Assembly: GCA_051294375.1 (NCBI GenBank)
Contig: JBJCIZ010000028.1
Span: 202,100 to 266,099, forward strand
Length of the DNA stretch: 64,000 nucleotides
Direction of reading: 5' to 3'
From: Paraspadella gotoi
Taxonomy: Eukaryota; Animalia; Chaetognatha
The translations under genes were made by a program, and so were the position numbers. Under the pieces are notes generated by a model. It did not search any database. It worked only from the letters and a program-made list of their open reading frames with translations, and was not told where the DNA came from. Shown piece by piece: positions 1-64,000 of the stretch (position 1 is the first letter of the stretch; every line of letters starts with the position of its first letter).

Positions 1-106
1 TCTTTACAGATGTTTTTCCTGAAGACGACGAAGCAGACGACAGACGTGAGAAGAAGAAGAACGACCGTGAATCCAGTGAGAAGTAAGATGCCAAGCATGT
101 TGTTGC
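1..106 (-). CDS. Constant exon C12 (partial): transmembrane helix and start of cytoplasmic tail, (G)NNMLGILLLTGFTVVLLLLTSVVCFVVFRKNICK
   Basis: ctccAG acceptor at 109-107, phase 1 matches C11; ~24 hydrophobic residues followed by RK stop-transfer; runs off window. Confidence 0.85.
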
Positions 107-120
107 CTGGAGGAAGCAAT

Positions 121-620
121 CAAACAGTTGATCAATCAATCAATCATTTGATCGATAAAGCAGTTAATCAATTATTTAAACAATGAAGAAGTTAATCAAT
201 CAATAAATCAATCTAGCAATCAATCAATCAAGCATTCGAACGATGAAGCAATTAATCAATGAGTTAATCAATCAATCATTCAAACAATGAAGCACGAAAT
301 TAATCAGTCCATCCATCAATAATTTTAACAATAAAGCAGTCAATCAAATATTTAAACAATGAAGAAGTTCATCAATCGATCAATCAATCTAGCAGTCAAT
401 CAATCAAGCATTCGAACGATGAAGCAATTAATCAATAAGTTAAGCAATCAATCATTCAAACAATGAAGCACGAAATTAATCAGTCCATCCATCAATAATT
501 TTAACAATAAAGCAGTCAATCAATTATTTAAACAATGACGAAATTAATCAATCAATAATTCGAACAATCTAGCAATTAATCAATCAGTCAATCAATCGCT
601 TAATCAATCTGTCAAACATT
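121..620. repeat. Intronic AATC-rich minisatellite, ~176-bp higher-order unit in about 2.5 copies
   Basis: agcattcgaacgatgaagc recurs at 231 and 407; dense caat/aatc motifs. Confidence 0.75.
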
Positions 621-684
621 AGATTGGTTTTACCACGAACAGCCAAATTAATAATCAAAACAACAACAACGAGTTCCAACTGAC

Positions 685-790
685 CCAGAATCGGTTTTCT
701 GTCTCGATCGTTGGGATAAATCGCGTCTTGTTGCATATCGGAAATTGTGACCACCATTTTCTTCTCCGTTCTGCCCGCGACGCTGCTCAC
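685..790 (-). CDS. Constant exon C11: end of Ig4 and juxtamembrane stalk, VSSVAGRTEKKMVVTISDMQQDAIYPNDRDRKPIL
   Basis: ctcAG acceptor 793-791; G|GTCAGT donor; phase 0 to 1. Confidence 0.8.
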
Positions 791-1111
791 CTGAGAAGAG
801 AGAGTGACGAGTTGGAATCATTGTACTAATGTAATAAAGATTTAACAGTTGCTGATGAGACTGAAAATCCGAAATCTCATTTGCATATTGCAGCAGTTTA
901 GATCATTTTCCGTATCATTTTATTTAATCTTTTTTCTTAATTTTATATAATTTTCTACGAGTACTTTTCGTACTTCCTACCAATGAATTAGCTCTTCGGA
1001 TAATATTTCGGCATTTCACCGTAGAATTTGTGGTTACATTTTCGTCAAGTGCGACGGGAACCGAAAATGAACTCGTGAAACGAAACGACATTTTTTTTTC
1101 CCCAAATTTAC

Positions 1112-1182
1112 CTTCAAAAGAATCGCCATCGTTTCCAATCCGTATTTTTCGGGTTTAAACTTGAATTCGACGCGAACTCCGT
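1112..1182 (-). CDS. Constant exon C10 (Ig4): (N)GVRVEFKFKPEKYGLETMAILLK
   Basis: ttttaaacAG acceptor; AAG|GTAAAT donor; phase 1 to 0 fits both neighbours. Confidence 0.8.
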
Positions 1183-1670
1183 CTGTTTAAAACAAAATGA
1201 CAACGTTTGTTAAAAACAAAATAAATATATAATAAATACATAAAATATATATTAAGAAATAAATCATAAATAAACTTTGTTACGCCGGTCATGACTTGAC
1301 ACGACCGTGGCCGTCGGACGCCGACGACGGGAGAGATCCGCGTCGTGCCTCGCCCGTTTTACGCGAAGAAAAATATCGAATGTGAAGACGATATCATGAT
1401 TATTTTTTATTTTAGAACGTCGCGGGAGGCAAATTGAGTTGCTTCGAGAGCCCCGGACGTACACGTTTTTAACCATATATTGGTGGTTTATATTTTAAAC
1501 TCGTTTTTACCTCACGTTTTATCTTTTTTTACTCGTTAATTCGCGTCGCCATTTTTAATTGTGAAAGAATAAATTTACCAACGCGTTCCAAATTCTGTAT
1601 CGTCTATCTCGAAACCAAAGTCAGCCAACGAAAATTAGAAATATTAAGCTCGAAGCACAAACAAACTTAC

Positions 1671-1729
1671 TGGCGATTTCGGTCATGAGTTCCGGAGCTT
1701 GACGACTATCGAGGTCGTTCTCCACGTAC
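1671..1729 (-). CDS. Constant exon C9 (Ig4): (W)YVENDLDSRQAPELMTEIA
   Basis: atcatcAG acceptor; A|GTAAGT donor; phase 2 to 1. Confidence 0.78.
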
Positions 1730-1801
1730 CTGATGATTGATTGATTGATTAGATTAATTGATTGATTGATTTGAATTGATTGATCATTGATACTAACTCA
1801 C

Positions 1802-2098: not shown

Positions 2099-2161
2099 AT
2101 TTTTGGTGCAGGCGATTTCAGGTGGTCGAATGATGGTGACAGTGACTTCACGTTTAATCAC
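2099..2161 (-). CDS. Constant exon C7: end of Ig3 and start of Ig4, VIKREVTVTIIRPPEIACTKN
   Basis: cctatcAG acceptor; AAT|GTAAGT donor; phase 0 to 0. Confidence 0.8.
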
Positions 2162-2780: not shown

Positions 2781-2837
2781 GTCAAGGCCGCCGTCTCGTC
2801 TGTTGGACACCTGAGTCTGCATCTGATCTTCGCCGAC
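2781..2837 (-). CDS. Constant exon C5 (Ig3): VGEDQMQTQVSNRRDGGLD
   Basis: atgtctcAG acceptor; GAC|GTAAGT donor; phase 0 to 0. Confidence 0.78.
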
Positions 2838-3083: not shown

Positions 3084-3172
3084 CTTCCAAGTGATTCCGG
3101 CGTTGCTAGGCAACGGATTTCCTCTCACGACGCAGCTGACGGATTGAGACTTTTCGCGAGGTTTGATCATCA
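3084..3172 (-). CDS. Constant exon C4 (Ig3 B/C strands): (V)MIKPREKSQSVSCVVRGNPLPSNAGITWK
   Basis: ttatccAG acceptor; AAG|GTGAGT donor; C-x3-GNP-x-P...I-x-W Ig signature; phase 1 to 0. Confidence 0.88.
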
Positions 3173-3906: not shown

Positions 3907-4027
3907 CCGCGGGCGGACATTCGATCTTCGGCTCGAATCTCACGTCGAGGACGCCGAAGGAGCAAGAGGGCGGCTGCGTGCCGGCTTTGAGGTGTGTGTG
4001 GCGGACGGAGCAGGTCAGTTCTTTGCC
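3907..4027 (-). CDS. Constant exon C3 (Ig2 F/G strands): GKELTCSVRHTHLKAGTQPPSCSFGVLDVRFEPKIECPPA
   Basis: ccccaacAG acceptor; G|GTGAGA donor; DQ|GKELTCSV resembles the D-x-G-x-x-L-T-C motif of CD80-like C2-set domains (nectin/CADM/nephrin type). Confidence 0.88.
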
Positions 4028-4650: not shown

Positions 4651-4833
4651 CTGATCCGCGTAACGAGCGACGTAATCCAAATGAGACGCCATCTTTCCCG
4701 AGTCGTCGTTCGTCGGCGCCGGAAGCGTCTCGTTCCCGAGGCGCCAAACGATTTCCGCGGCGCCACCGGAAGTCAAGTCCGTTACGTTGGCGCCGCAACG
4801 GAAGGCGCGGGCGGCGTCTTCCGTTATCGTCAT
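4651..4833 (-). CDS. Constant exon C2 (Ig2): MTITEDAARAFRCGANVTDLTSGGAAEIVWRLGNETLPAPTNDDSGKMASHLDYVARYADQ
   Basis: ctccccAG acceptor after a long polypyrimidine tract; CAG|GTGCGA donor; B-strand Cys and C-strand Trp; phase 0 to 0. Confidence 0.88.
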
Positions 4834-5289: not shown

Positions 5290-5437
5290 CTCGGCCCTCT
5301 CGCATTTCGGGAGACCCAAGACGGTGAGATGGAATTGGTGAGACTTTTCACCGTCGCAGACGAACTTTCCAGCGTCGCTGCTGCGGACGTCGGTGATCGT
5401 CAGGGTGTAGAGGGTCCCTTCCTTCTTGAAGGTGTAC
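5290..5437 (-). CDS. Constant exon C1: C-terminal half of the V-type Ig domain, (R)YTFKKEGTLYTLTITDVRSSDAGKFVCDGEKSHQFHLTVLGLPKCERAE; common acceptor for all variable exons
   Basis: atatcAG acceptor at 5440-5438, phase 2; L-T-I (E strand) and D-A-G-x-F-x-C (F strand) motifs; GAG|GTGAGT donor. Confidence 0.92.
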
Positions 5438-6139: not shown

Positions 6140-6354
6140 CGCTCATCATCGAATCTGGCCAGTTTTCGGACCCCGACGGCTAAGTTTCTGACGTCCGCAT
6201 TTCGGATCAAAGTCCAAACCGGAGCCTCGTCGGCGCCGCAGGAAAATCGAGCCGCGGCGCCGGATACGACGCCGACGAAGACGTCCGGCGCGGTTGACGA
6301 CGCCGAGAAGGAAACGAGGAGTAAAAAGATCGAAAATACGAGAATTGACTTCAT
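6140..6354 (-). CDS. Variable first exon, most proximal, intact: MKSILVFSIFLLLVSFSASS...RFSCGADEAPVW...LAVGVRKLARFDDER
   Basis: Signal peptide + half-Ig; CG|GTAAAA donor; 215 nt (3n+2). Confidence 0.9.
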
Positions 6355-9299: not shown

Positions 9300-9469
9300 T
9301 CGAAAGCTTTGATGCCTTTCATTCCCTCTTTGTCCCAGTATTCATGCATCCATAATAGGAACCAGAGAAATCGCATGATAGTCGATTCTCGAATCTTCTC
9401 TCCGTCGACTGTAGCTTCACCAATGAGGAAAAAAGTAGAGAAAAGAGCGACAAATATGGAGGAAAACAT
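9300..9469 (-). CDS. Partial variable exon, 3' end in gap: MFSSIFVALFSTFFLIGEA...GMKGIKAF
   Basis: Signal peptide, GI-x-AF motif, upstream element near 9537 and aaacaaaagg near 9597. Confidence 0.55.
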
Positions 9470-9994
9470 GATTACTGTAGACACGGACGTAGGAAGCCTT
9501 TCGCTCAGAAAAAGGAGTATAACAATATTAGAAAAGAGACGGGTTGCGCCGCCTTGAATTGACGGGTGGAATCAGAGATTGAAGAAGAAATGCGGAAAAC
9601 AAAAGGCGTCGAAGGAAGGCATTCTGTGGCAACGAGTAGTTTTAATTTTCTTACGATAGATGATAAGTTAAAATATTGTGTGTGGATAAAAATATTGCGT
9701 CAATTGAAAAAGATAAAAGGTTCGCCCATTCATGAAACCGCGTAACATTTTCAATGTTATACTGGCAATGAATATAATAAAATCGCGTTGAGAATTTTTA
9801 AGAAAATTTAGCACAGTTAAAATTCAATTTTTTCAATTATATTGTCTTCGGCGTCGTCGTCGTCGTCTTAGATGTAAACACTTAACACTTCTCTTAAATA
9901 ATAATGCTAATGTGAATATAACGCCACACTAAAATAAAATACCACACCATCTGACTTTTAGAACACCACATATCAAAGTATCATTCTTCGCCAC

Positions 9995-10236
9995 CTGTCG
10001 TCTTGAAAATTGGCCTGTTTCTTCTCGCCAAAGGCCATCCCTCTCATTCTCGTCTGCGTCCGACTCTGACGCAACCAAATCGGAATTGTGACGGAGACGC
10101 AGGAAAATCGGACCCGCGTTTCCATGGCGACGACTCGGACTTCGTCTTCGACGTCGGAGGAAACGACGACGACGACGACATGAGACGAAAGAAGAAAAAT
10201 CGTGAAAAAGAAAAGAAGTTTCGTCCTCGGCGTCAT
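9995..10236 (-). CDS. Variable first exon, intact: MTPRTKLLFFF...RFSCVSVTIPIW...GMAFGEKKQANFQDDR
   Basis: AG|GTGGCG donor; 242 nt; upstream element at 10286. Confidence 0.87.
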
Positions 10237-11249
10237 TTTTAAAGGGTTAAAGATATTCTGAATGAATACAAAGGTTTACAAAAAGGACCGGTAGCGCCGC
10301 TAATGGTCGAGCGGCGGAATTACGCGGAAGAAGAGTTGGGAAAGAAACAAAAGACGGGGAAAGGAACCGATTTGAAACGAAAGATAAGGCAGGAGAGGAT
10401 GAGCCGAGTATAAAAGTGTGTCTTCTGATTCACTTGTAAAGTGTAACGTTCAATCTCAAAAGATTTTTAGACCGAGTCCCGTTTTGTAATAAAAATCGGA
10501 AAAAATAAATTAGCTAATTCTTCGGATTAATTCTTTCGGTCAAAACCGAAGTCGTCTTTCTATAGCACCAATTGGGAAAATGATATATGTTATATGGAGT
10601 AATTAAAACAGATATTAAAATAACAATACTTAAATGCTATAAAGGAAAGAATAACAAATAAAATTTTAGAAGCAAACACGCTCGAAGCAGAAAAAACATA
10701 ATAAATATTTTATAAAACAAATTGTTAAATAATAACCCCAAAATGATAGAATTATAACAATAATAATCAACATTACCGCACGTCCTTAAATCTCGACATT
10801 TTCTTGTCTCCANNNNNNNNNNATTTGGAATCAGCATATTGTCCTCTTTCAAACCCATTCATTTTCCTAAATATTTTAATTAGTTTTAAGACTATGATAT
10901 ATTTTTATAATTTTCAAAAAATATTTTTGGTATTTAAAATAGTTTTTGTAAATTTAATTTTTTTTTATTAAAACTGGTCTTCTTCAAAGTATCATTTTGT
11001 ATAAAAATGGAATTAATTACCTTGCACCTTTTAAGAATACTCTTGAATTTTTTTTTGAGTGATTTAATTTTTAAAACAAAAAAAATAAAATTAATTCAAA
11101 AATTTTATTACATCATTATGTAGGCCTCGTCTCGGAGTATTTATGAGCAAAAAATGATAGGACAAGCTTCATTAATAACCGCGTTAGAGCAAATATTGTA
11201 AAAAAAAATTTTGGGGTGCTGAGCGCAATTTTTTTGAATTTTTAAAAAT

Positions 11250-11450
11250 CCTTCAAACGGGCAATAAACCTAACGTTCCTGCATCTATTACTCAGAGCTG
11301 AGCTGATTTCAACTCCTAGTTTGAGAGATATCCATTCCCTCAACTTTTTCGAGTAAAGAAAACGCGTGCTGTAAGAAATGGAAGGCGAAATTGAGAGAGA
11401 GACATTTTTAAGACGAGGAATCGGAGGAAATAAGGAGAAATGGAATAGAA
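11250..11450 (-). pseudogene. Degenerate variable exon (...TRFLYSKKLREW...ARLKD)
   Basis: Intact upstream element near 11476 and gaaacaaaag near 11540 but decayed coding part; boundaries approximate. Confidence 0.45.
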
Positions 11451-12033: not shown

Positions 12034-12266
12034 CTTGGTTCCTTGAATCTGGCCTGTTTCTTCCCTCCAATCGCGATTCCGTGCATCCGATTCTGATCTT
12101 TGTTTCGCATCAACCACATCGGAGCGGAAGAAGACGAACAAGAAAAGGAAACAGACCGACCGACCGTCGTAACATCGGCGAATGTCGACAAGGCGGAGGA
12201 AATTAAGAGTTGAAAAGTCACGAAAAAAGTGAAAAAATGTGAGAAAATAAATGAAGTTAGCGTCAT
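12034..12266 (-). CDS. Variable first exon, intact: MTLTSFIFSHFF...SFSCSSSSAPMW...GIAIGGKKQARFKEPR
   Basis: AG|GTCAGA donor; 233 nt; upstream element 12334. Confidence 0.88.
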
Positions 12267-12750: not shown

Positions 12751-12974
12751 CTCGGGTTTTTAAACTTCGCCTGCTTCTTGTCGCCCATCGCCATCCCGTG
12801 CATTCGGTTCTGATCTTCGTTTTGCATCATCCAAATTGGATCCGACGACGACGAACAAGAAAATGAAACAGACAGACCGACCGTAGTCACATCGGCGATC
12901 GAAGAAAAGACGGAGGAAATTAAAAATTGAAAAGAAAAGAAAAAAGTCGAGAGAAAAATAGAAATTCGAGTCAT
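12751..12974 (-). CDS. Variable first exon, intact: MTRISIFLSTFF...SFSCSSSSDPIW...GMAMGDKKQAKFKNPR
   Basis: AG|GTACGA donor; 224 nt; upstream element 13054; close paralogue of the previous cassette. Confidence 0.88.
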
Positions 12975-13414: not shown

Positions 13415-13688
13415 CTTTGGTCCTTAAATCGCGACTTCCTTTTCGCGCCATAAGCGACGCCCGTCATTCTTTCGCCCGACGATTGTCTCATCCACATCGG
13501 AGTCTCTCTCGATTGACAAGAGAAGTCGACNNNNNNNNNNNNNNNNNNNNNNNNNGTCGACGTTAGGTATTAGCGCGACAGAGAGCGAGACGTCGTCGAC
13601 GAGAGAGATGAGAGACGTCTTCGGCGCCGGACAGAATCGGCGTAAGAAAACGTTGAAGAGGAGAGGAGAAAGAGGAAGCTCTGAACAT
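13415..13688 (-). CDS. Variable exon interrupted by a small gap: ...DFSCQSRETPMWMRQSSGERMTGVAYGAKRKSRFKDQR
   Basis: 3' half intact with AG|GTTCGT donor; 5' half noisy. Confidence 0.65.
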
Positions 13689-16482
13689 AGCTTAGGATGA
13701 GAGAGAGTAGAGAGAGAAGAGATGGAGAGAGAGACTGAGGAGAGAGAGAAGACCTGATGTAATTAGTTTAATTAATAAATTAATAATTAACTAATAACTG
13801 TCGACAGACGAGTGATGTAGTGACCGAAGACGGATTGTTGAAAAGAAAAAAGTTTTTTGGTTGACGAGAAAAATGAAATTCTTTGTCGATAAGCGGATGA
13901 CCTGTGTGGAAAAGAGGAAAAAGACCGGTTAGCGGACGAAAAGAGCGGGAACGAAAGGAATATATTCGAATATAGAGAGAAACAAAAGAGTTGACGATTC
14001 CAGAGTAGGCGGGGATCGCATGAGTTGAGAGCTTTTTTTAAACAATTCAAAATTAAAAATAAAAAACGTAGGATTGAATATGTATTATATATTTATTTAT
14101 AACGAAAGGGCTCCAAAAATAATAAAAGAAATTTAGTCATTCAGTTTTTAAATCATTTTATCATTTTCATCATCGATATAAAAAAAAAGGACATACGCGG
14201 ACGGCAGAAGCATTAGACAGAAAGTCAGACAGACGAACAGGACAGACAATGAGACTGATATGAGAAGCAGGCTGACGGAAAAAAATGGACGGTTTGTTTG
14301 AGCTGCCTCGACTTTCTGGCTGACTTCACGATGGCGACGATTCGTGCGTTTCAAATTGTAGTTTTGTTTATTTACAAATCGAGGTTTTAAACGGTATCAT
14401 AATTAAGTCGATAATACAGTGCCATAAATCATAAAAAAAAAGTCCTTTAAATTATAAAACAATACGGTTCTTAAACAAACGGTCTTAAAACCGTACGACG
14501 TCGCGAGGCAACTACCTCTTGACTTTAAGATTCTATACATTTTCAAAATAATTCGCGGATATCCCGATGTTCACGTTTCTTCGATCGTCTTCATTAATCG
14601 ATTCGTCGTTCTTTTCTCTCGAAACTGGGCAAAGTGAGACGCCGATATCGAATTCAGGGCCGTCGGACGTCGAGCCACTTTTTCGCCTATTACGGTCCAC
14701 TGACATGCGACGCCGACATGAAAGAATACTTTATTGAAAAACATAAAAATTATATTAAAAACAATCAGAAGACTTTTTTTACCTTCTCGTCTTTTAAAAT
14801 CTCACGGTTCTTCTTGTTCCGACTTGCGAGATGAGAAACGGCGACACTTGTCAAAACTGACTGAATTTCTTGATCGCGGTTCCATAATCAGGCGCCGAGT
14901 TGGATCGCAGAGAATTCCGGCGTTCGGCGCCGGAAACGAGTATCTCGTTCCGGAAATCGTTGTTGTTGTTGTGTCGGTTTCGTACGCGATCGAGAGATTC
15001 ACGAGTTGAGAGCGAAAAAATGAGACAAAGAATCGCGACAAAGTGTCAAGAACACATTTTTTTGTTGGAATTTTCGAGGCAAAGTGAAAAAAAGGACAAA
15101 GGAGATAAGGAGACAAGCAATTTTCCAAGAAGCTGACGACTGTGGCGACAGAAGGATGTTAAGAAGATAATGGAATAGGAAAAAGAAAAACTAGCTAACG
15201 CCGCCGCGCGGGATCGAATGAAACTATTAGGTTGCGTGGATTGAGCAAACAAAAGGAACGTCGTGAGATAACTAGAAGATGTCGAATTGAAATTGTCTCT
15301 TAAACAGGATATGTTTTGCTACGGTATTAAATTACGAAAATCCGATGATAACTTGACGGCCGAGATATTAAGTTTGCTAAATTACTGTACATAATAAAAG
15401 GTATAACATGACATCATTAAGCATACGTGGTATAAGACACGCCTTCGAGGTAAGTAAGTAGTAAGTATGCAAGTTACATACAAATGAGCTATTTTACCGT
15501 AGCCACCTACTTTATATTTATCATAGTGGATAAACTTTGTCTCTCTACTAAACAGACCAACCAATTGCAAATAATAACGAGAAGTTACAGGAAAGGAATA
15601 GTCATAATTTCAACATCTTATCTTAAGGAATAATTAATACAATTATTTATATAACTTTAGGTAAATGTTGGCAATTATGGAACTCAGTTATTATTATAAA
15701 GTTATATTTTTTATTGATCAAACTGCAATATGCAGAATTAGAATATTAAATATAATGTCCGTAAGAAGGAAAAAGGAAAAGAAAACAAATTTCAAGGTTT
15801 TATAAATCACCCAAAATTCAAATTACATTTGCATTTATTTGCATGAAAGTGCGTTAACTTCCTAATTTATTATTCGTTGTTCTACCATCATTTATTCTTT
15901 CAATTATCATTTCAAAATAATTACGCGATAGAATGTTTAGAAAGTTAGATTAGCTTTAAAGAGTTCACACGTTACATGCCTTCACGCAAATCTGATATTT
16001 TACGTTTTGATCACGAAATCCCATCATCTTTCTTTCTCCTCACAAGCGAGGCTTTTCATATTTCGATCTCTGATTCGATTCCAAACTGAGCATTCGATGA
16101 AACGCAAGAAAATTGCTATGGATGCGAAGAGTCCGGAGAACGAAACGGAGAAAGTTTCAGGCGATTTCGTGAAGATTAAACGAGGCATATATGCCGAAGA
16201 TGCAGAGAAAGGAGGGGAAGGAACTTTGGGTATCGAAGGTTTAAGAAGCGAGGAAGGATAAACTTGGCGATTTTTCTGTGATTTTTTTATGCTGTTGCAT
16301 AGTTGAATAAAGAAATTTTTGTGGCAGAAATGGGAGAGAAATGGAGAAGGAATAACGCGAAGAGACTAGCAGAGACACCGAGCGTCATGAATGTTGATAT
16401 GAGTAGAAAAAACAAAAGAGCATCTTTCGACGGAACGGTAGAGAGAGGAGAGAGAGAGAGAGAGAGAGTAAGAGAGGTGAGA

Positions 16483-16518
<36 letters not shown>

Positions 16519-17603
16519 AGAATGAGTAGAGAGATGCAGAGGAGAGAGCAGAGGGACGATTGTAAATATTTTTTGCGTTTAAGACAGCTAAAAAAAAATC
16601 TTTTTCTGCTCAAAGTTAGCTAATTCAAAATATATTTCGTAGAAACCCGTAAGAATTTCTAAAATATTCCAACATTTCTCAAAGATTAAAAAATGACAGG
16701 ACAAGAATTAACCGAATAACACGGACAGGACGCGACACAAATTAGCTACGAACGCAAAGACTAACAGACAAGAGAGAAAAAAATTACCTCAGTTAAAGAA
16801 AGGGCAGATAGGCAAACGAATAGACAGACAAGCAATAGGAACAGTCAGGACACACTGAGACAGAGCGATACGAATAGACGTACGGACAGGAGATTAGGAG
16901 CAGCAGACAGACCAATGACCGCACAGACAGGACCCCCCCCCGCATTTCTACCTCTGATCTTTGAATCTGCATCGTCTTCTTATTTCCGACTCCAAAATCT
17001 GATGTTTCGCCTCGACTTTTGAATTCGATACCAAATCGGACGTTCTTCGATGAATCGCGAACGAAATTCCATGATGCAACCGGAAAGCGAGACAGGATTT
17101 CCATCGAAATAGAGAGGTGGAGAAGAGAGCGAAAGAGAGGAGAGAGAAGAAGAGAGGAGGAGCAGGAGGCGAGACCATTGTTTATTTGTGTAGTTTGGTG
17201 GAGTTTTTTTTTTTAGAAAAAATAAAGAGTAGGATGGACGTTTTAAGAGATGGACAATGCGAATGAGAGGGACGAGGAAGAAGCAGGAAAGGATGGGTTA
17301 GAGACGCCGAACGGAAATAGGGAAATGAATAAAGAAAACAAAAGGCTATTCGCCGTTTTTGACTTTGAAGACGAAGAAAAATTTCATTTACATCATATGA
17401 GAAGAGAGGAAAAAAAATGAAAGGATCAGAAATTTAAAAAAAACGTTTAGAACGAAATGTTAACCCCCACGAACTTATCAAAAATAAATTTATGCCACAC
17501 TTTTGAATTTTACTTTAATTTTCATTATTCAATGGTTGCACTAAACAAAAGTAGCGATTGAAAGAAAAACAAATGGACGATGGAGATGAAACAACATATT
17601 AGA

Positions 17604-17641
<38 letters not shown>

Positions 17642-21801: not shown

Positions 21802-21837
<36 letters not shown>

Positions 21838-44734: not shown

Positions 44735-44959
44735 CCAATATCGAAGAATTTGAACCAACCAACCAACCAAGTCTCCGGTTCCACGCCGGAAAGTCTCCGG
44801 TTCCACGCCGGAAAGTCTCCGGTTCCACGCCGGAAAGTCTCCGGTTCCACGCCGGAATGTCGATGGAATCGCAAGAGAGGTGGAACCGGATACGACGAAG
44901 ACTTTGGAACCGAGAATCGGCGAAACGAGGAGAAAAGAAGACAGGAGGAAAAGAAACAT
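44735..44959 (-). pseudogene. Variable exon disrupted by internal 22-bp tandem amplification: MFLFLLSSFLLVSPILG...CDSIDIPAWNRR
   Basis: Signal peptide and upstream element (45091) intact; the PAWNRR codons are repeated four times and the 3' half is lost. Confidence 0.7.
44770..44857. repeat. 4 x 22-bp tandem repeat agtctccggttccacgccggaa
   Basis: gtctcc starts at 44771, 44793, 44815, 44837. Confidence 0.92.
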
Positions 44960-46618: not shown

Positions 46619-46821
46619 CTGTTCTCCTTGAACCAAGACTGTTTTCTTTCTCCGTAAGCGATCATGCGACTGTTTCCATTCACTGGTCTTCTGTTCCAGG
46701 CGACTGTTTCTGGAGAAGAGCAAGAGAAAGAGACGGGCGTTCCGAGAAAAGAGATTCGAGTCTCTCCGAGAGACGAGCGGAAGATAAAAGCCAAAAATAC
46801 GAGGTGAAACAGGAAAAGCAT
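46619..46821 (-). CDS. Variable first exon, intact, WF class: MLFLFHLVFL...SFSCSSPETVAWNRR...MIAYGERKQSWFKENR
   Basis: AG|GTTGGG donor; 203 nt; upstream element 46951. Confidence 0.87.
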
Positions 46822-47451: not shown

Positions 47452-47675
47452 CTTCGATCCTTAAATCTCGACATTCTCTTGTCCCCAAAAGCCAGATTCC
47501 TCACGTCGTTCACGGTTTCACCGATTCGATTCCAAATTGGTGATTCTTTCGATTCACAAGCGAAAGAGACGGAGGAAGAAGATTGAGTTACGAGGTGAGA
47601 GGAAGAGGAAGAGGAGAATCGGAGGAAAGAGGCGAGGAAGAAGACGAAGACGAGGAAAATCGAAAAAGGAGACAT
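47452..47675 (-). CDS. Variable first exon, intact: MSPFSIFLVF...SFACESKESPIWNRI...NLAFGDKRMSRFKDRR
   Basis: AG|GTAAAG donor; 224 nt. Confidence 0.9.
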
Positions 47676-48725: not shown

Positions 48726-48922
48726 CTGTTATCTCGAAACCACGGTTGCCTCTTATCCCCAAAAGCGATAGTTCTAAATCGATCATTGACTTCTCGGTTC
48801 CACGCAGGCGCGTGACGAGCGTCGCACGAGAAAGACGCCGAAGATTTAATTATGACGACAGAAGCGGCGTCGCCTTTCGCCGAATTGATAAACACAATCG
48901 TGAAAATTAAGAGAAAATACAT
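48726..48922 (-). CDS. Variable first exon, intact, WF class: MYFLLIFTIVF...SFSCDARHAPAWNRE...TIAFGDKRQPWFRDNR
   Basis: AG|GTTAGC donor; 197 nt. Confidence 0.88.
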
Positions 48923-50177: not shown

Positions 50178-50404
50178 CTAGTATCTTTGAACCATTGTTG
50201 CCGTCTTTCCCCCACCGCGACAGTCCGACTGTTTTCGGTCAACAGCTGACGATACCACACAGGAGTGTAATCAGATTCGCAAGAGAAAGACGCTTGACTG
50301 TTGACAACAACGACGTAGCTTTCACTGGCGACGACTGAAGATGTAAATAATCCCAGAACCCCGTAACAGAAGACGAATATAAATTTAGAGTTGATAAAGA
50401 TCAT
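50178..50404 (-). CDS. Variable first exon, intact, WF class: MIFINSKFIF...SFSCESDYTPVWYRQ...TVAVGERRQQWFKDTR
   Basis: AG|GTTCGT donor; 227 nt. Confidence 0.88.
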
Positions 50405-50912: not shown

Positions 50913-51157
50913 CTCCTATCCTGGAACCATTTCTTCCTCGTCTCTCCAACCGCGATGCTCTTCAACCGGAAATCGCTGCTCAACCAAACCGGAGTCTCGG
51001 CCGAAGAGCAAGAGAAAGAGATTCCGGAGCCGGAAAGGACGACGGCCGAGACGGGAGACTCGCCGGAGGATGGGAGGCCGAGAGACTTGCCGGAAATTAG
51101 GACGAAAATCGGCGGGAGGATGAGAAGAGAAAGAAGGAGATTAGCCGAGAGAATCAT
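50913..51157 (-). CDS. Variable first exon, intact, WF class: MILSANLLLS...SFSCSSAETPVWLSS...SIAVGETRKKWFQDRR
   Basis: AG|GTTTGT donor; 245 nt. Confidence 0.87.
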
Positions 51158-51686: not shown

Positions 51687-52009
51687 CTGTCGTCCTTGAA
51701 TCTCGGCATCTTCTCGACCCCGACGGCGACGACCTGCATCTCCTCCTGTCCGTCTGTCTTTTTCTGCCAAATCGGACTCCGCGAAGAGACGCAACGAAAA
51801 ATCGCGTTGGCGCCGGAGACGACGATTGCAGAGCCGGATGCAGAGCCGGACGCGGCGCCGGATTCAGCGCCGCTTCCGGTGTTGGACTGCGCCGCGGTGG
51901 CTAGACTATTCGAGGCCGCCACAAGTAAAATCATCCAACTGAGTTTGTGGATCAGTTTGAACGATTTGGCTCGTTTGCTCGAGACTGGACGACGAAGGTC
52001 CATTTTCAT
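51687..52009 (-). CDS. Variable first exon, intact, long Gly/Ser/Ala linker: MKMDLRR...IFRCVSSRSPIWQKK...VVAVGVEKMPRFKDDR
   Basis: AG|GTGCCA donor; 323 nt; upstream element divergent. Confidence 0.85.
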
Positions 52010-52439: not shown

Positions 52440-52568
52440 CTTTGATCCTGAAACCAAGACTTTCTTCTGTCACCGTAAGCGATGCTACGAACTTGATCGC
52501 CGAATCTTAACCAAGTCGGCGGATCGGATGACGAACATGAAAAAATCGACGATGAACCCGAAGTTACG

Positions 52569-52606
<38 letters not shown>

Positions 52607-52663
52607 AACCGACAATCGAATAAAGATTAAAATTAACGTGAACGACTTGAGTTGATGCATCAT
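52440..52663 (-). CDS. Variable first exon, intact, WF class: MMHQLKSFTLI...IFSCSSSDPPTWLRF...SIAYGDRRKSWFQDQR
   Basis: AG|GTAAGT donor; 224 nt. Confidence 0.9.
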
Positions 52664-53346
52664 TTTTAGCGGAAAATTGGGAGATTAATCGAGGAATTGC
52701 GATGGAGACAAATAGAGATTATTTAAAAATATTTATTTAGAATTAGTCTAATTCTCTTTTTAAAAAAAGATGTTTTATCATCCGTGATGATGACGACTAA
52801 ACAATTCTTGAGAAAAATGAGAAGCAACTTCCGAGAGTTGGGAGAAAAATAGAAAACGGACTACTAGCGCCACTGTGAGAGTTTTACGGCCTATCGCTAA
52901 CAAAAGGACAATCGATTCGGGAAGGAATGATTCTCATCGCATGAAAATCCAAGATGACAGAATGACGACTTTATAGAACACAATGCTTTCCATTGATTNN
53001 NNNNNNNNNNNNNNNNNNNNNNNTTATTAAATTTGGTGCACTTTTATATTCTTTTGTTAGAAATTGATTGTGAGTATTATTTTAATTTCTCTTATTTAAA
53101 ATCAACTATAGCGAATCAGAAATGATTGGGACGTTCGTGTTTCAGGAAAATATGAAACTTTTTCAACTTATTTGGAGACTATTATGACGAGCCATTCCAA
53201 GTAGGCTAAAAAAATAAGACGAAAATTAAATAGTAACAAAAATTAATAATCATTTAATGATCAATTAATTAAAAGAAACAAAAATAAGAATTTCGAAGAA
53301 CGTCCACATTTGCCGTAGACTCAATTTTCTCGCATCAAAACTTTAC

Positions 53347-53600
53347 CCTTGGTCCCTGGAACCAGGATTTTCTCACGACCCAGATGGCGATGCTTCGAAC
53401 TTGGATCGCCGACGCTCAACATATCGGTTTGGAGCTGACGAAGAACATTTTGAAAAAAGTCGCCGCACGAACCCGAAGTTACGGACGACGACGACCCCAC
53501 GACGACGACGACGCACGACGACGGACGAAGAACAAAGACGAATGTATCAACAATGCGAAAGCCCAAATAAAAGGGAAAAATGTTAAAAATCCATTGATTA
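53347..53600 (-). pseudogene. Noisy variable exon, paralogue of the 52440 cassette
   Basis: SSSSVTSGS motif, GTAAAG donor, upstream element 53682; multiple indels; start approximate. Confidence 0.6.
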
Positions 53601-53936: not shown

Positions 53937-54165
53937 GAGAGGAGCAGATGAGGGAGAGGAGATGAAGAGAGGAGATGAGGAGAGAGAGAAGAGAGAGAGA
54001 GAGCAAGAAAATTTAAACCAATCCTTGGCGAATTCATAATCAAGAAATTTTTAGAATAATTTCGCATGTTAACCAAATAAAAAAGAAATTCGCGTTCCAT
54101 GCAATTATTTGCTTCTTATCTGCATAACTGCATCCGCCCTTCTGGATATCACTTCAAATTTGCAC

Positions 54166-54420
54166 CTGTCATCCTTAAATCTCGGCATCCGCCTGTTCAC
54201 CCATGGCGATGCCTTGCATCTCCTTGAGATTCCCCGTCTTTCGCTGCCACAGAGGCGTTTTGCCTTCGACTCGGCAGGTGAACGAATTATTTTGGATCGA
54301 GAGTCGACAAGTTTACGTCGGCCAGAATCGGCTCAGCGTCGGCGGCGGAGAAGGAAAAGGATTGAGGAATGAAGGCGAGGAGGCAGAGGAGAGACGAAAG
54401 TTAGAGAGAGAGTGGAGCAT
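54166..54420 (-). pseudogene. Noisy variable exon ending ...GIAMG...RMPRFKDDR
   Basis: AG|GTGCAA donor; resembles the 63365 cassette; indels. Confidence 0.65.
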
Positions 54421-55088
54421 TTTTTAAGCGATTCTATTCGTATTTCGGACGTGTTTTGTTCCAAAGAGGAAAAATTGCAGAAAGAAAATTAAAGATAAGT
54501 CATCGGCCGGAACGAGAAAACCAGTAAGAGACACCAAGCGGGAAGAAAAATAAACAAAGGCTAAGTGAGAGTCGCTTTTAAGACAACAGATGTTATTAGC
54601 GACGTGAGGAGTTTAGTAGTTACGTTAGAGATTCTTATCCACAGAGTGACCCCAAAAAAAAAACAAATTCATTTTTTATTTGTGGCTAATTTTTCGAATC
54701 CTTTACAGTGTAAAGAACTTAAATTATTTTTAATATCAGGAATTTGAAAAACGAATAACTTGAGAATAAATTAAAAATTGTTCTAAAGAATCGTCTCGTA
54801 AATTGCATTGGAAAAAAACATTTTCAAATTTCTGTCGTTTATTTACGTGAATAAGGAAAGTAAAAGATGAAAGGACAGGAAAAGAGAAAAAGAAAAAAAA
54901 AGGGGAGATAGAGACAGGAAGAGCGATTGGCGCTGGAGAGTGAAGGATATTCCCTAACTTTCTGCGCCCAAGAAAAAAGCGACCAAAGGATTGAAAGGAG
55001 GTCATCAAATTAAAAAATGTCATTTGCAAAATTCCGAGATCTTCAAGTGTAACCGCATCTCTTAAATAATGGAAAACCCAGTCAAAAC

Positions 55089-56952: not shown

Positions 56953-57033
56953 AATGGTAGCGATTCGATCGCCGTTGCAACGAAGGATCAAAGTCAAGTC
57001 GGTCAGAATAACAAGGACGAGAAAAAACTTCAT
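56953..57033 (-). CDS. Partial variable exon, 3' end in gap: MKFFLVLVILTDLTLILRCNGDRIATI
   Basis: Signal peptide similar to the 59219 and 60844 cassettes; upstream element near 57133. Confidence 0.75.
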
Positions 57034-59218: not shown

Positions 59219-59427
59219 CTGTTATCTTTGAATCTGGGCATTTTTTGACTCCCGATCGCCATTCCATTAGAATCCTCTGTACCGAATTTTTTAAAGAGCC
59301 ACATCGGAGTAACGTTAGAGGTGCAAGAAAACTGCAATTCGGATCCAATGGTCGCAATACGGTCTCCGTTGCAAGGAAAAATCATAGTCAAGTAGATCAG
59401 AATCACGACGGCGACAAAAATATTCAT
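59219..59427 (-). CDS. Variable first exon, intact: MNIFVAVVILI...QFSCTSNVTPMWLFK...GMAIGSQKMPRFKDNR
   Basis: AG|GTTGGA donor; 209 nt. Confidence 0.88.
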
Positions 59428-60081: not shown

Positions 60082-60298
60082 CTGTCAATCTGTGAATCTC
60101 GGCATCTTTTTATTCGCAGACTGCCAAACCATTCGTTGCTTCTTCGCCGAATTTTTTTAAAGAACCAAATCGGCGACGACGTTTGAGGTGCAAGAAATTG
60201 CAATGTGGATGCCAATGGTACGAGATACGATGCCCGTCGCAACGAAAGAATCAAAGTCAGAGTCGATCAGAATAACTAACCACGAGAAATAATGTCAT
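60082..60298 (-). pseudogene. Noisy variable exon, NGDRI subfamily (...SSPIWFFKK...KMPRF)
   Basis: AG|GTTAGA donor; upstream element near 60379; indels. Confidence 0.62.
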
Positions 60299-60630: not shown

Positions 60631-60680
<50 letters not shown>

Positions 60681-60843
60681 AGAGAGACGAGAGAGAGAGA
60701 GAACGAAATTTTTGTCTCTCTAATTTAGGACGACCAAAGTATTAAAAGACAGAGAAGAACCGAAAAGATCCATATATACAAGCTCCAAGAAACCATCATT
60801 ATTTTCGCGCGCCAAAAATTCAAAGTCAAAGTCGAAGACTAAC

Positions 60844-61052
60844 CTGTTGTCCTTGAATCTCGGCATCTTTTGACTCCCAAATGCCATTCCATTGGTATTA
60901 TCTTCACCGGATTTTTTAAAGAACCACATTGGCGACACGTTGGAATTGCAAGAAAACTGCAATGCGGATCCAATGGTCACGATTCGATCCCCTTTGCAAC
61001 GAAGCATCAACGTGAAGTTGAGCAGAATAACAATCACGACAAAATAATTCAT
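60844..61052 (-). CDS. Variable first exon, intact: MNYFVVIVILL...QFSCNSNVSPMWFFK...GMAFGSQKMPRFKDNR
   Basis: AG|GTTAGT donor; 209 nt; upstream element 61121. Confidence 0.9.
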
Positions 61053-61620
61053 TTTGGTTTATTTTTGGAGGCGAATTTATCTATCGAAGTTTTGCAAATG
61101 AGAAACGAAAGGAATGAGAAGACTACTGAGGACACCTTGTGACGGAAAGAAAAGTATGACAGACTTCGAAAACAAAAGTCAATCGTCCTTTGTTTAATTT
61201 TTGTCTCAATTTAGTACCGTGAATTTGGATGCGTCTAGTAAAATAGTACCATATATTATTATATTATTATATTTCACAAACCTGAAAAAGCTACAATACA
61301 AACTTTTTCTCAATTTTATTTAAAAACTAATGATAAATATTTTCTAAATTTGATACTAAAAGAAATAAACGGTCGTTTTGCATTAATAATAATCAGTAGA
61401 CTTCTGCAGACGAATAAAATTACATTTGAGGTAAATAAATTTCCAACATTCCCAAATATGAATATGTTTTATTTTGAGTGAAACAGGTGTTTTCGATGAG
61501 CTTTTTAAAATATATCACTTTTAAACGTGAATAAAAACATATAAAAACAGAAACAATGAAACCAAAACAACGACAAAAAACAAAAAGAAACAACCTATCC
61601 CCCCAATCCAATTTTTAAAC

Positions 61621-61856
61621 CTGTCGTCCGTAAACCAGGACTGCCTCTTCTCTCCAAAAGCCAAAGACCGAAACTGATCAGTCGGCTTCCCTTGTCGGTT
61701 CCAAATCGGCGCGTCGGTAAAGTCGCAACGAAAAGAGACCGACGAACCGACGGCGACGGCGAAGTCTTCGCCGTTGGCGGCGAAAAACGAGGCGAAGACT
61801 TCGCCTTTGGCGGCGAAAAATACGGCGAAGACCCAAGAGCCGAAGAAGAGCGTCAT
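61621..61856 (-). CDS. Variable first exon, intact, WF class: MTLFFGSWVF...SFRCDFTDAPIWNRQ...SLAFGEKRQSWFTDDR
   Basis: AG|GTTTAA donor; 236 nt. Confidence 0.86.
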
Positions 61857-62614
61857 ATTTTAAGGAAAAGTCTTAAATTTGGCGAATTTGATTATGTTTA
61901 TCTTTTGAGAGTTGGAGAGTGGAATAGGGACGATAGGTAAGAAAAAAGACAAGTAGAGACCCCTGTGCTTCCGCTTGAAGAATTAAAAAAAAAAAAAGAG
62001 CAAGAAACTTTTTGCCCTGTAAGGGTTTTATTGTTCAAGCAAAGTTCAGACGAGAAGAAATATTTTTTTTTATCATTTTCTCATTTGTATAAAATTTATT
62101 ATTTTGCTGCAAAAACGGATGTTTCTTTGCGCGTCAAAATGAAGATATTGACAATTTTGTCATAATAAACAAAAGTTCGTTTTAAAAAAAATTATAAAAT
62201 AAAATGCCATCAACAACAACGTCAAAACAAAGATAATAAAGTTAGGCACCGAATGATAGTCCTAAAAATAGATCAAAGGAGAGATAAGTTTTAGGAATAA
62301 CCGACCGACTGATAGAAACGGACAGACAGACTTATAAAAGGACAGATAGACCGACAGACTGACTAATAAACAGACCAACAGACTGATTAATAAAAAGACT
62401 GGCAGACAGACTGATAAACAGACGGACAGACTCTTTGACATCTAGATGTCAAAAATGGGCCAGTATAATCTTGACAAGAAATTACAAATCACTTTTGCGC
62501 AATATCTTTTGTTAAATATCTTTTGTTAAATACACCCTGATAGTCAGAGGAGAAACTAAACTCTCTGAGAGACTCTTGTACGGACGTACGGACTCCATTC
62601 GCACAACTCCTCAC

Positions 62615-62862
62615 CGCGTATCTCGAAACCAGGATTTCCTTTTATCCCCGACGGCGATGCTACGCGCCACGTCGGTGACTTTTTGCCAAATCGGCGAATC
62701 GGCGGAGGAACAGGAGAAGGAAATATCGGCGCCGGAAGAAACGGCCGACGACGACGATGATGACGACGACGACGAAGATGACGACGAGATTTGTAAGATG
62801 AAAATTAGCGTCGCGATGTAAAAAAGATCGACAAAGTGATCCATGATTGATAATAATAACAT
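62615..62862 (-). CDS. Variable first exon, intact, WF class: MLLLSIMDHF...SFSCSSADSPIWQKV...SIAVGDKRKSWFRDTR
   Basis: CG|GTGAGG donor; 248 nt; upstream element 62940. Confidence 0.88.
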
Positions 62863-63364
62863 TCGTCTTTAGATACTAAATTTTGAGTCTTTTTGATTTG
62901 CAAATGAAGATTTAAATGCGACAGAATGGATAAAAAGTGGACGAGTAGAGACGCCTAGTGGAGTTTTTGAAAACTAAGAGGTTCTTTCTCTCTCTCTCTC
63001 CCAAAGCAAAGGAACAAGCGGAGAGATGTGCAAATTCCTATTATTTTTGTTTGTTTGTTTTTTATTCGAATTAACGAAATGATTGTATAATGTTGACATA
63101 ATAGGCATTTATTGATCCCATATTATTCAAATATTATTCAAATTGGGAAAATACCTGATGGGTCAACAAGAGACGGATTCGAGATAAATTAAGAGACAAT
63201 GAAGGGAAAAAAACTTTATGGACAAACAAATTTAAGATACACAATAATCTAAATCAAAGAACAATATTTTGGAAAGTTGTAACCCATGTAAGTACAGAGA
63301 GTATCAAAAAAATGATTCAAAGAAGGCACCTGTCAAGATAAAACCAAACAAAAAACAGACGCAC

Positions 63365-63606
63365 CTGTCATCCTTAAACCGCGGCATCCGCCTGACGCCC
63401 ATCGCGATGCCCTGACTGTCGTCTTGACCCGCGACTTTTCTCTGCCACAAAGGAGTTTCGGACGAAAGGCAATTGAATTCAACTCTGTCTCCCTTCGTGA
63501 TCAATTTCGTCTCGCTCTCCCTATTTGTCTCGCTCTCATTCGCGCCGCAAAGGAGGAAGAAAACGTGGAGCGAAAAAATCGCGAGCAAAAGTCGACGACG
63601 AAGCAT
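63365..63606 (-). CDS. Variable first exon, intact, most distal in window: MLRRRLLLAIF...EFNCLSSETPLWQRK...GIAMGVRRMPRFKDDR
   Basis: AG|GTGCGT donor; 242 nt; upstream element 63782. Confidence 0.88.
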
Positions 63607-64000
63607 AGTTATCTATTTTAATAATATTTTATTTAGTTTAAAATATATATTTTGATTTCTTTGTTCAATTTCAAGATTGTTTTTCATGTGTAAAAGTTCA
63701 ATTAATCCTTTAAAAAATATTTAGACGACGGAGTCGCTTTGAAGATTCTTCAGAAAGCCTTGGGTTTGGTCCTTGGAAAAAGACAGGTAGAGACATCTGC
63801 CGATTATTTTACAATAAACAAATGACACTAATTGGTAAAAATTGGTAAAAATAAGGCTTGAAATGAAAAAGAGGAGATCCGGTGATCAAAGTCTTTTAGA
63901 TTTTTAACAGTTAAGGGCAATTTGAGTGATATTTGGAATAGCGATAAATAGTGAATTAATTTGGACGAATCACATCTGGTAACAGTAGAAAGCTTCTTTA

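Follow-up and report, generated by a model that had tools for sequence, protein, structure and literature searches.

Does the stretch of Paraspadella gotoi DNA analysed here (64,000 nucleotides, the window) carry one receptor gene with many alternative beginnings? About 43 distinct first-exon cassettes lie on the minus strand between 6140 and 63606, 28 of them intact and about 15 cut by gaps or frameshifted. We consider it quite probable that they belong to a single immunoglobulin (Ig)-superfamily receptor gene, in which each tandem first exon (a leader plus half a V domain, with a 20-nt motif) likely has its own promoter and is likely joined from a cap-proximal donor to the first constant exon, C1, promoter choice setting the version displayed.

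An intact cassette is a single exon of 197-266 nt encoding half a domain: an ATG, a signal peptide, and the N-terminal half of a V-set Ig domain, ending at a phase-2 GT donor. As the earlier note had stated, all 28 intact units are 3n+2 nt long and terminate in GT; none contains a stop, a signal-peptide-like hydrophobic stretch was found in 27 of them, and joining to C1 left 28/28 in frame and stop-free. The Cys and Trp are invariant among cassettes. The same-strand arrangement that the note described was also recovered: a DNA profile of the half-V gave 52 matches, 48 of them at E<0.01 and all 48 on the minus strand (the remaining four had E 0.5-4.7), and donors are spaced 0.7-1.4 kb apart across most clean stretches. 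The distinct V cassettes are the following.

63365..63606, minus, intact, motif at 63802
62615..62844, minus, intact, motif at 62960
61621..61856, minus, intact, motif at 61968
60844..61052, minus, intact, motif at 61141
60082..60298, minus, frameshifted, with donor
59219..59427, minus, intact, motif under threshold
56953..57033, minus, gap-cut, motif at 57152; noisy full copy at ~55089-55320
54164..54421, minus, known from noisy sequence only, ends approximate; clean motif copy at 56213
53343..53593, minus, known from noisy sequence only, ends approximate; motif at 53702
52440..52663, minus, intact, motif at 52879
51687..51934, minus, intact, motif at 52169
50913..51157, minus, intact, motif at 51328
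50178..50404, minus, intact, motif at 50535
48726..48922, minus, intact, motif at 49004
47452..47675, minus, intact, motif at 47799
46619..46821, minus, intact, motif at 46971
44780..44959, minus, broken, internal tandem repeat, no donor seen, end approximate
43988..44226, minus, intact, motif at 44329
43186..43394, minus, intact, motif at 43501
41930..42091, minus, 5' part in gap, phase-2 donor intact
40646..40896, minus, intact, motif at 41003
39779..39890, minus, cassette start, 3' part in gap, approximate, motif at 39983
38709..38938, minus, intact, motif at 39047
37875..38140, minus, intact, long C-C' insertion, motif at 38243
37033..37141, minus, cassette start, 3' part in gap, motif at 37261
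35040..35245, minus, intact, motif at 35458
33668..33876, minus, intact, motif at 33971
32638..32845, minus, frameshift near donor, motif at 32962
31412..31665, minus, intact, motif at 31737
30569..30792, minus, intact, motif at 30915
29733..29954, minus, donor out of phase, duplicate copy with normal AG/GT junction, motif at 30096
28857..29074, minus, intact, motif at 29183
27822..28042, minus, intact, motif at 28153
26943..27196, minus, intact, motif at 27305
25793..26045, minus, frameshifted, motif at 26191
24852..25060, minus, frameshifted, start approximate, motif at 25135
13415..13688, minus, split by 25-N gap, donor present
12751..12974, minus, intact, motif at 13074
12034..12266, minus, intact, motif at 12354
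10777..11405, minus, disrupted: motif (11496) and ATG, unrelated sequence, 10-N gap, V 3' end and donor
9995..10236, minus, intact, motif at 10306
9300..9490, minus, cassette start entering gap, approximate, motif at 9558
6140..6354, minus, proximal, intact, motif at 6433, joined to C1 in a run X1 contig

The array is real, but the figure of about 46 cassettes proposed earlier has to be revised: the window holds about 54 cassette-like units, of which about 43 are distinct and 11 are probable long-read duplicate artefacts, and the former count had taken in assembly duplicates. Ten of the copies lie in one block.

13835..24586, minus, indel-rich duplicate of 25033-35691, 10 cassette copies

The two versions (13.8-24.6 and 25.0-35.7 kb) differ by 453 gaps versus 329 substitutions, with more transversions than transitions; true paralog pairs show 0-7 gaps per 46-71 substitutions. 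The 13.8-24.6 kb copy is bounded by 25-N gaps and is a probable long-read gap-fill artefact or second haplotype. The unit at ~55.3 kb duplicates the one at 57.0 kb. The variable region may extend past the window edge.

Comparison of the cassettes gave pN<pS in 374 of 378 pairs, with pN of 0.11 against pS of 0.49-0.57 in the closest pairs, a pattern indicating that strong purifying selection is acting on them. Such selection argues against use of the proximal cassette alone with C1, the others being decaying duplicates or short secreted half-domains. It is true that the sole join seen is the proximal one and that about 15 of the distinct cassettes seem damaged or partial; however, the breaks concentrate in gaps and noisy sequence, one of them being absent from the duplicate copy, and the donor phase is kept in 28/28 cassettes and in 83/84 relatives, which makes this explanation highly unlikely.

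The constant part of the gene comprises twelve exons.

5290..5437, minus, C1: phase-2 acceptor; V-domain strands D-E-F-G and start of Ig2
4651..4833, minus, C2: first part of Ig2 (Ig by Cys/Trp pattern only); spliced to C1 in X1
3907..4027, minus, C3: end of Ig2
3084..3172, minus, C4: Ig3 strands B-C
2781..2837, minus, C5
2303..2392, minus, C6: putative GC donor
2099..2161, minus, C7
1802..1888, minus, C8: Ig4 strands B-C; out of frame as assembled
1671..1729, minus, C9
1112..1182, minus, C10
685..790, minus, C11: end of Ig4, stalk
1..106, minus, C12: TM-like hydrophobic stretch, then basic residues; exits window

Judged by eye, the constant chain forms about four Ig-like units, including the V domain, followed by the TM segment; the TM exon C12 leaves at the window edge, and the cytoplasmic tail lies outside. 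Pfam, run on eight exon pieces, gave weak Ig matches for C1 and assigned no family to C2 or C3, so Ig2-Ig4 were called by eye; Ig3 and Ig4 lack the F-strand Cys. The in-frame join of all cassettes to one chain ending in a TM helix, as claimed in the note, holds for the 28/28 joins to C1 and for C1-C7, which are open given the GC donor at C6, but fails further on: with canonical splice sites, C8 (1888-1802) throws C9 out of frame. An open chain can be obtained through a weak GAG acceptor within C9, at the cost of the Ig4 Cys and Trp, or through small indels in the C8 assembly. The break is probably an assembly error; as assembled, it means that this gene copy could be defective or the four-Ig model wrong.

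Splicing was observed in contigs from X1, a public run presumed, as a guess, to be RNA, in which unspliced intron contigs are also present. One contig spans the proximal cassette, starting 71 nt above its ATG without a 5' loose end, and reaches 13 nt into C1, an overlap below the 31-nt bridging standard of the search tool; a second splices C1 to C2. The predicted junction at 5437 was found for the proximal cassette, in this one contig, whereas no distal cassette-to-C1 junction was seen in run X1. Variable donors match the donor consensus less well than constant donors (2.0/4 versus 3.5/4; p 4e-5).

Colinearity of the proximal contig into the motif, without a loose end, also bears on a Dscam1-like scheme in which a single promoter ahead of the array, or a leader added by trans-splicing, would serve internal cassettes used in mutual exclusion and the motif would be a splicing signal. 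The window does not reach the sequence upstream of the array, a pyrimidine-rich YAG precedes the ATG in 14/28 cassettes, and RNA pairing is known for Dscam1 and mite sDscam-beta (excerpts of PMC9258826). Set against these points, 10/28 cassettes lack any YAG between the motif and the ATG, each cassette carries its own ATG and signal peptide, and the last intron, taken as the docking region, shared no docking/selector complementarity with the 27 downstream introns (best matches 10-14 nt, scattered). We regard the single-promoter scheme as quite improbable.

Separate promoters are suggested by the sequence above each cassette. The 20-nt motif occurs 50-215 nt upstream of the ATG in 27/28 intact cassettes, uniformly oriented; these formed the training set, and the motif was also present upstream of 11/15 held-out distinct cassettes. 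The window contains 48 matches on the minus strand, none on the plus strand, and no reverse-oriented copy, compared with 0-1 per strand in 10 simulated sequences, and the de novo motif score was 659 versus 90-161 in five shuffles; the shared upstream motif reported earlier is thereby corroborated. A second element, the CTTTTGTT box, has 47 minus versus 3 plus matches, 33 of the 47 lying no more than 70 nt above a motif. Motif and box may constitute a putative promoter unit copied along with every cassette.

A profile search retrieved 88 half-V relative ORFs and five unsplit V domains. In 83/84 scorable relatives, the terminal Arg is followed by a residue compatible with a phase-2 GT donor (background 41%), and the upstream motif was recovered in 6/13 translated 5' extensions at p<0.05 (Fisher p 2e-6) and in 0/19 3' tails. 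These relatives come from short contigs, 561-1839 nt long in the 20 cases retrieved, so that neither a tandem arrangement nor constant exons can be seen on them. Three of the five unsplit relatives scored above the Pfam V-set cut-off and all five end in a V-V-R-stop signature; there may be a sister class of leader cassettes that carry a whole V domain. The model of one of them, P0095, is an antibody-like V domain matching antibody light-chain V domains (pLDDT 88, Foldseek E 1e-7). The V-set hallmarks (B-Cys, C-Trp, and D-x-G-x-Y/F-x-C) are present, and the Cys-Cys spacing of the joined domain is 59-63 in 27/28 cassettes, with 62 in 5/5 unsplit relatives. The unsplit relatives confirm, by way of a predicted structure of a relative's domain rather than the window's own, that V-half and C1 form one fold.

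A V-type domain divided between variable and constant parts would also suit somatic DNA rearrangement or gene conversion that brings cassettes to an expression site, as in antibodies, VLRs, or VSGs, and in one cassette the two assembly copies do differ over the 3' half (26045 versus 15057). However, each cassette possesses its own ATG, leader, donor, and upstream motif, an RSS heptamer and nonamer were found within 60 nt of the donors in 0/28, and a motif search downstream of cassettes returned only an A-rich low-complexity consensus. Of the explanations considered, rearrangement is the least probable.

How a promoter would be chosen is a separate matter. Three published CTCF consensuses align with the motif in the same best register, with 25-38 of 400 column permutations scoring equally high (p 0.06-0.10). 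The second G of the CTCF GGC core is T in 32/38 motif sites, and CGCT stands at the place matching the Pcdh element in 10/38. The match is not significant, and CTCF involvement is suggestive only. Nearly even prospects are given to a variant of our reading with the same gene structure, in which cell type or tissue dictates the cassette used (UGT1A- or Dpr/DIP-like), the choice is not stochastic, and CTCF plays no part. Cassette subclasses common to relatives favour this variant and suggest old, conserved classes: 12/28 are nearer a relative than any window paralog, and in the cassette tree the window cassettes are not one clade (21 label changes versus 25.5 when shuffled and 1 for a single clade). 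Yet this tree rests on about 47 columns, and the near-uniform, one-orientation motif resembles the Pcdh conserved sequence element (excerpts of PMC7811963).

Under promoter choice, each cassette would be spliced from its cap-proximal donor to C1, completing the V domain. We propose that, since C1 completes the domain of whichever cassette is spliced, the promoter chosen would set the version a cell displays; skipped downstream cassettes would be ignored because they have no consistent acceptor and presumably weak, cap-proximity-dependent donors. The variable half would contribute strands A', B, C, and C' and the CC' loop. The face through which Ig1 usually binds would then be part variable and part constant, so specificity would change with the cassette. 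Reading frame, selection, the motif, a single V-to-C1 junction, and a matching anatomy among relatives speak for the variable-first-exon/constant-exon reading already put forward in the note; the constant chain is broken in the assembly as it stands. By analogy with Pcdh and sDscam, the product would most likely be a cell-recognition code, presumably neural.

A literature search found no earlier description of the locus. The clustered protocadherins of vertebrates (Pcdh alpha/gamma) have variable first exons with a same-orientation conserved element before the ATG, and common exons (excerpts of PMC7811963 and PMC3333863). The locus resembles them in its tandem variable first exons with common downstream exons and in a conserved single-orientation element whose distance to the following ATG is similar. 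However, the Pcdh scaffold is cadherin and the one here is Ig: Pfam on eight exon pieces gave no cadherin repeats, and PDB matches were Ig. The variable exon of a Pcdh carries the complete ectodomain plus the TM, whereas a cassette here encodes a leader and half of domain 1, with the TM in constant exon C12, and the array is very compact at ~1 kb per unit, unlike clustered protocadherins. Membership was rejected on the absence of cadherin and on cassettes of 197-266 nt without a TM.

The shortened Dscam genes of chelicerates (sDscam alpha/beta) have tandem 5' cassettes with their own promoters and a variable N-terminal Ig (excerpts of PMC4835542 and PMC5775551); their products contain three Ig and three FNIII, and each cassette is made of 2 or 4 exons that encode whole Ig domains (excerpts of PMC10084454 and PMC4835542). 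Both systems are IgSF receptors with tandem 5' cassettes for a variable N-terminal Ig and with constant exons, but an sDscam cassette supplies the whole of Ig1 or Ig1-2, whereas here one exon supplies half a domain. No FNIII was seen by eye or in the Pfam-scanned exons, and a Dscam PDB match (E 0.024) was one among many generic Ig matches, which shows no particular closeness to Dscam. Membership was rejected on these differences and on the lack of docking complementarity in the last intron. The independence from both families asserted earlier is supported by these results, neither cadherin nor FNIII being seen and the cassette being a single exon with half a domain. Drosophila Dscam1 variable exons encode half-Ig units, a likeness to the cassettes here; its clusters, in contrast, are internal, their exons being mutually exclusive and having neither leader nor promoter, and the cassettes carry an ATG and signal peptide.

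Kirrel/Neph, nectin/SynCAM, and Dpr/DIP receptors share with the locus an N-terminal V-like domain (the binding domain in those families), further Ig domains, and a single TM (excerpts of PMC10084454). Kirrel/nectin-type genes differ in their single-copy first exons and in Ig number (five in Kirrels, three in nectins, about four by eye here); the Kirrel/Neph hallmark is five Ig plus a C-terminal PDZ motif, and the tail here lies outside the window. Hydractinia Alr offers clustered, divergent V-set TM receptors in an invertebrate, as 41 separate whole genes with one exon per domain (excerpts of PMC9546547). The Alr genes lack a shared constant region, and an Alr-type layout was rejected on the single constant region and exon-split domains found here. 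UGT1A and GCNT2 employ multiple variable first exons and promoter choice (excerpts of PMC1885805 and PMC3325998), the architecture proposed here, but encode enzymes, not receptors. A bolder reading, which we hold as doubtful, would see in the locus the protocadherin design arising independently for a third time, after vertebrate Pcdh and chelicerate sDscam, and, for the first time in an invertebrate, a conserved, uniformly oriented CTCF-like element per variable exon, with stochastic, looping-dependent choice; if true, choice among at least 40 half-V cassettes would be a single-cell identity code across a whole animal clade. The best reading is promoter choice with cap-proximal splicing in a gene convergent with clustered protocadherins and sDscam and a member of neither.

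This variable-first-exon locus for an Ig receptor is genuine and under selection, and it seems to be shared across a clade. Its DNA is animal-like and the window includes 5,387 N. Screening the window with a regular expression and then with DNA and protein profiles gave 48 half-V matches at E<0.01, every one on the minus strand. Twenty-eight cassettes (V exons) were intact, with an ATG, a leader, a half Ig domain, a length of 3n+2 and a GT donor, and a leader 9-residue hydropathy of at least 2 was seen in 27 of them. Cys, Trp and Gly were invariant in the half Ig domain of these 28, and the mature halves shared 37% identity on average (range 21-77%). Another 15 distinct cassettes were gap-cut, frameshifted or disrupted, for a distinct total of about 43. 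The same-strand array with units of about 1 kb described in the earlier note, and its 28 intact units of 3n+2 nt with ATG, signal peptide, half V-Ig and GT donor, were thus recovered; the array stood, but its count of about 46 cassettes did not, since 11 copies were discounted as assembly duplicates. Among cassette pairs, pN was below pS in 374 of 378, and the third codon position was the least conserved.

Self-alignment of the window revealed two duplicated stretches: 13.8-24.6 kb is a repeat of 25.0-35.7 kb, and 54.5-55.5 kb is one of 56.1-57.2 kb. The large duplicate differed from the other copy by 453 gaps (332 of a single base) and 329 substitutions, among which transversions outnumbered transitions; between true paralog pairs of cassettes, the differences were almost all substitutions. 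Gaps of 25 N, a gap-filling convention, bound both copies, and indel-dominated differences are the profile of unpolished long reads; the 11 cassette copies were therefore discounted. A real, decayed segmental duplication of 11 kb was rejected because the predominance of indels and the 25-N borders are as expected from gap filling with long reads; the duplicate may be a second haplotype. One "broken" cassette donor was normal in the other assembly copy, so some of the remaining cassette breaks are probably errors too. At 26045-25793 versus 15057-14783, and at 25060 versus 13688, the copies agree to mid-cassette and then diverge, and one promoter region leads into a different cassette in each copy; this reflects either a mis-join or a haplotype difference in cassette content.

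Within the array, the cassette at 44780-44860 is broken up by a brief stretch of its coding sequence repeated in tandem, and its donor is not visible; short dispersed non-coding repeats lie between cassettes (49118-49271 / 49914-50067; 44476-44643 / 49461-49618). The Rfam scan returned tRNAs alone and no other RNA family. The tRNA-Leu(UAA) genes lie about 120-330 nt upstream of cassette motifs, three of them within the noisy duplicate, and could be insulators or passengers.

tRNA-Leu(UAA) genes within the array (tRNA / Rfam search)
37399-37483, plus strand, gene antisense to cassettes
39374-39456, plus strand, gene antisense to cassettes
23279-23761, plus strand, antisense to cassettes
near 34280-34620, pieces cut by gaps

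The first constant exon, C1 (5437-5290), starts in phase 2, encodes D-E-F-G strands and has weak I-set/V-set and pIgR/Robo similarity. The in-frame joining of intact cassettes to it, as previously claimed, held for every unit (28/28 V-to-C1 joins open). Exons C1-C7 read open given a GC donor at C6 (2303), a putative GC-AG intron in the constant region, and C9 is out of frame after C8 as assembled. Read in its three frames, C8 yields first a plausible A' strand, next a B strand with a Cys and then a C strand with a Trp, and its Cys-to-Trp spacing, read across the breaks, equals that of Ig3, from which we infer small assembly indels. A chain that stays open by way of a weak GAG acceptor does exist, at the cost of these Cys and Trp residues. 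C12 carries a TM-like stretch and runs out of the window; the in-frame constant chain to a TM helix proposed in the earlier note is broken at C8 as assembled. Ig2-Ig4 were assigned by Cys/Trp pattern alone, and Pfam scans of C2 and C3 individually gave no family. An extra A-strand Cys follows Pro in Ig2, Ig3 and Ig4 (5290-5320, 3907-3930, 2099-2115) and the F-strand Cys is absent from Ig3 and Ig4, a pattern that suggests unusual disulfides.

None of the runs listed as sharing the sequence is catalogued as RNA; transcript evidence came from one run, X1, presumed to be RNA and containing 0.18 of the sampled words, and was compared over 5230-6520. A 1,327-nt contig spanning C1 runs on into the start of C2 at its loose end and is therefore spliced. 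A second contig, of 299 nt, begins within the motif at 71 nt before the ATG of the proximal cassette (6140-6354), spans that cassette and stops in the first 13 nt of C1; it shows the proximal V-to-C1 join as one short junction whose 13-nt overlap is below the 31-nt bridging standard. Two low-depth contigs carry intron sequence, one crossing an unspliced donor; passages of PMC4835542 describe intron retention behind the variable exons of chelicerate shortened Dscam (sDscam). The constant contig ends 1 nt from the C1 acceptor at a depth of 28 versus 2.4 for the proximal V contig (one study, flat contig depth), which fits a branch point and is not counted as evidence. The compared stretch contains no distal cassette, so the absence of other V-to-C1 contigs there says nothing on distal use. 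At 6055-6120, X1 (one low-depth contig) and the assembly differ at 8 intron positions and at none in the adjoining exon end, through either another allele or error. The matches in record 5 (18-23 nt) were dismissed as chance.

De novo motif search upstream of the cassettes gave CGCTCGGCGTCTCTACTAGT, with a score of 659 versus 90-161 in 5 shuffles. At a fixed threshold it had 48 minus-strand and 0 plus-strand matches in the window, and 0-1 in simulated sequence; of the 48, 27 belong to the 28 training cassettes and 11 to the 15 distinct cassettes that were held out, the duplicate contains 7, and the last 3, all weak, fall in exons. Some 20-50 nt upstream of the motif is a CTTTTGTT box (47 minus, 3 plus in the window). 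PMC7811963 and PMC3333863 describe the clustered protocadherin (Pcdh) element as a CGCT-box site that is conserved, stands at a set distance upstream of every ATG and always has the same orientation; by this description rather than by CSE sequences, CGCT occupies the corresponding place in 10 of 38 cassette motif sites. The motif aligned with three CTCF consensuses quoted from part of PMC6746451 in a single register and orientation, and the match was not significant by permutation of these three, as 25-38 of 400 permuted consensuses scored equally. The core G of the consensuses is mostly T in the cassette motif, whose invariant 3' GT lies outside the region they cover. On these grounds CTCF would be a lead, unproven, and a core-promoter or initiator element is equally likely. 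A recurring element around ATGCAAAT, often as CAATATGCAAAT and presumably octamer/POU-like, occurs in either orientation, within constant introns as well as in the spaces separating cassettes.

Recurring ATGCAAAT element
886, 3369, 45306 and 49394, minus strand
26684, 18792 and 29613, plus strand

Donors of V exons were weaker than those of constant exons (p 4e-5), and the cassette ATGs lacked a consistent acceptor upstream (10/28 without YAG, 14/28 with a pyrimidine-rich YAG). Docking/selector RNA pairing was not found in the array with the last intron as docking region, nor was a recombination signal heptamer or nonamer within 60 nt of the cassette donors. Together, these signals fit cassettes acting as first exons defined by the cap. 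A promoter would be chosen per cassette, followed by splicing from the cap-proximal donor to C1, a mode of expression that we consider quite probable at this locus. Mapped on a structural model, the variable exon supplies strands A', B, C and C' together with the loop leading to D, and F and G are constant; across 33 half-V rows, variability is highest in A', at the centre of the BC loop and in the CC' loop. Since related Ig adhesion families bind via domain 1, according to passages of PMC10084454, cassette choice would by analogy likely tune binding specificity.

A profile of the 28 half-V sequences gave 121 matches among 1.84 billion representatives; 93 were retained as short single-stretch members and 28 excluded as long or partial, and seven long excluded matches, when checked, were six generic multi-Ig proteins and one without a Pfam family. 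Leader-plus-half-V ORFs made up 88 of the 93. Judged from protein translations rather than DNA, the residue after the terminal Arg fits a phase-2 GT donor in 83 of 84 clearly anchored half-V ORFs (background 41%), being a stop in 41 and otherwise compatible with a T-starting codon. Scored via translation, the window motif was significant versus shuffles in 6 of 13 upstream ORF extensions (Fisher p 2e-6), these being found 55-76 residues upstream of the Cys, and in 0 of 19 3' tails. Twenty relatives that were looked up came from ENA or Logan records, on contigs < 2 kb. In a tree, window cassettes were interleaved with relatives and 12 of 28 were nearer a relative than any paralog in the window, so the cassette subclasses look old.

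In five relatives the V half continues in frame into a homolog of C1 (32-50% identity; Cys spacing 62); three of the five pass the Pfam V-set cut-off, and the predicted fold of P0095, an unsplit-V relative, is an antibody-like V domain; by these alignments and this model, a V half plus C1 is one V domain. The five, P0064, P0090, P0091, P0095 and P0113, are divergent, carry leader and whole V within a single ORF and share a V-V-R-stop ending, which suggests that strand G closes with a phase-2 donor; they are possibly a whole-V cassette class or an unsplit ancestor. P0064 gave a weak motif signal only. Word-index searches limited to longer proteins, with C1, alignment A1 and P0095 as queries, gave no match (weak negatives), the ESM Atlas held no usable match for C2 or for one V exon, and a degenerate cassette pattern matching 15 window sites found 0 in JGI metagenomes. 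L001, a candidate cassette relative without Cys-Trp, leader or motif, was rejected as chance.

Full-text literature searches, with most subscription journals, organism-name queries and genome-paper supplements outside their scope, turned up papers on Pcdh, UGT1A, Dscam/sDscam and Alr, none describing the locus; a prior mention is possible. The terms "promoter" and "protocadherin" are absent from a 2025 review of invertebrate IgSF (PMC11999971). What would be new is a variable-first-exon Ig receptor locus on its own scaffold; the variable-first-exon design itself is known. For how cells acquire individual surface identities there are two textbook answers, Dscam1 splicing and promoter choice in Pcdh, with sDscam as the one convergent case. 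If true, a separate Ig scaffold with promoter choice and a Pcdh-like conserved element would mean that this solution evolves repeatedly, and that a surface-identity design can work through swapping half a domain. The locus also accounts for some 90 ORFs that stood as orphans in public assemblies. With units of about 1 kb it occupies about 60 kb, so that long reads and reporters could test promoter choice and cap-proximal splicing directly; the same tests are hard in Pcdh variable regions, put at about 200 kb in a passage of PMC4835542. The locus works like Pcdh but is without cadherin, and it works like sDscam but has no FNIII seen and its cassettes are single-exon half-domains; it is a member of neither, in agreement with the separate design proposed in the earlier note.
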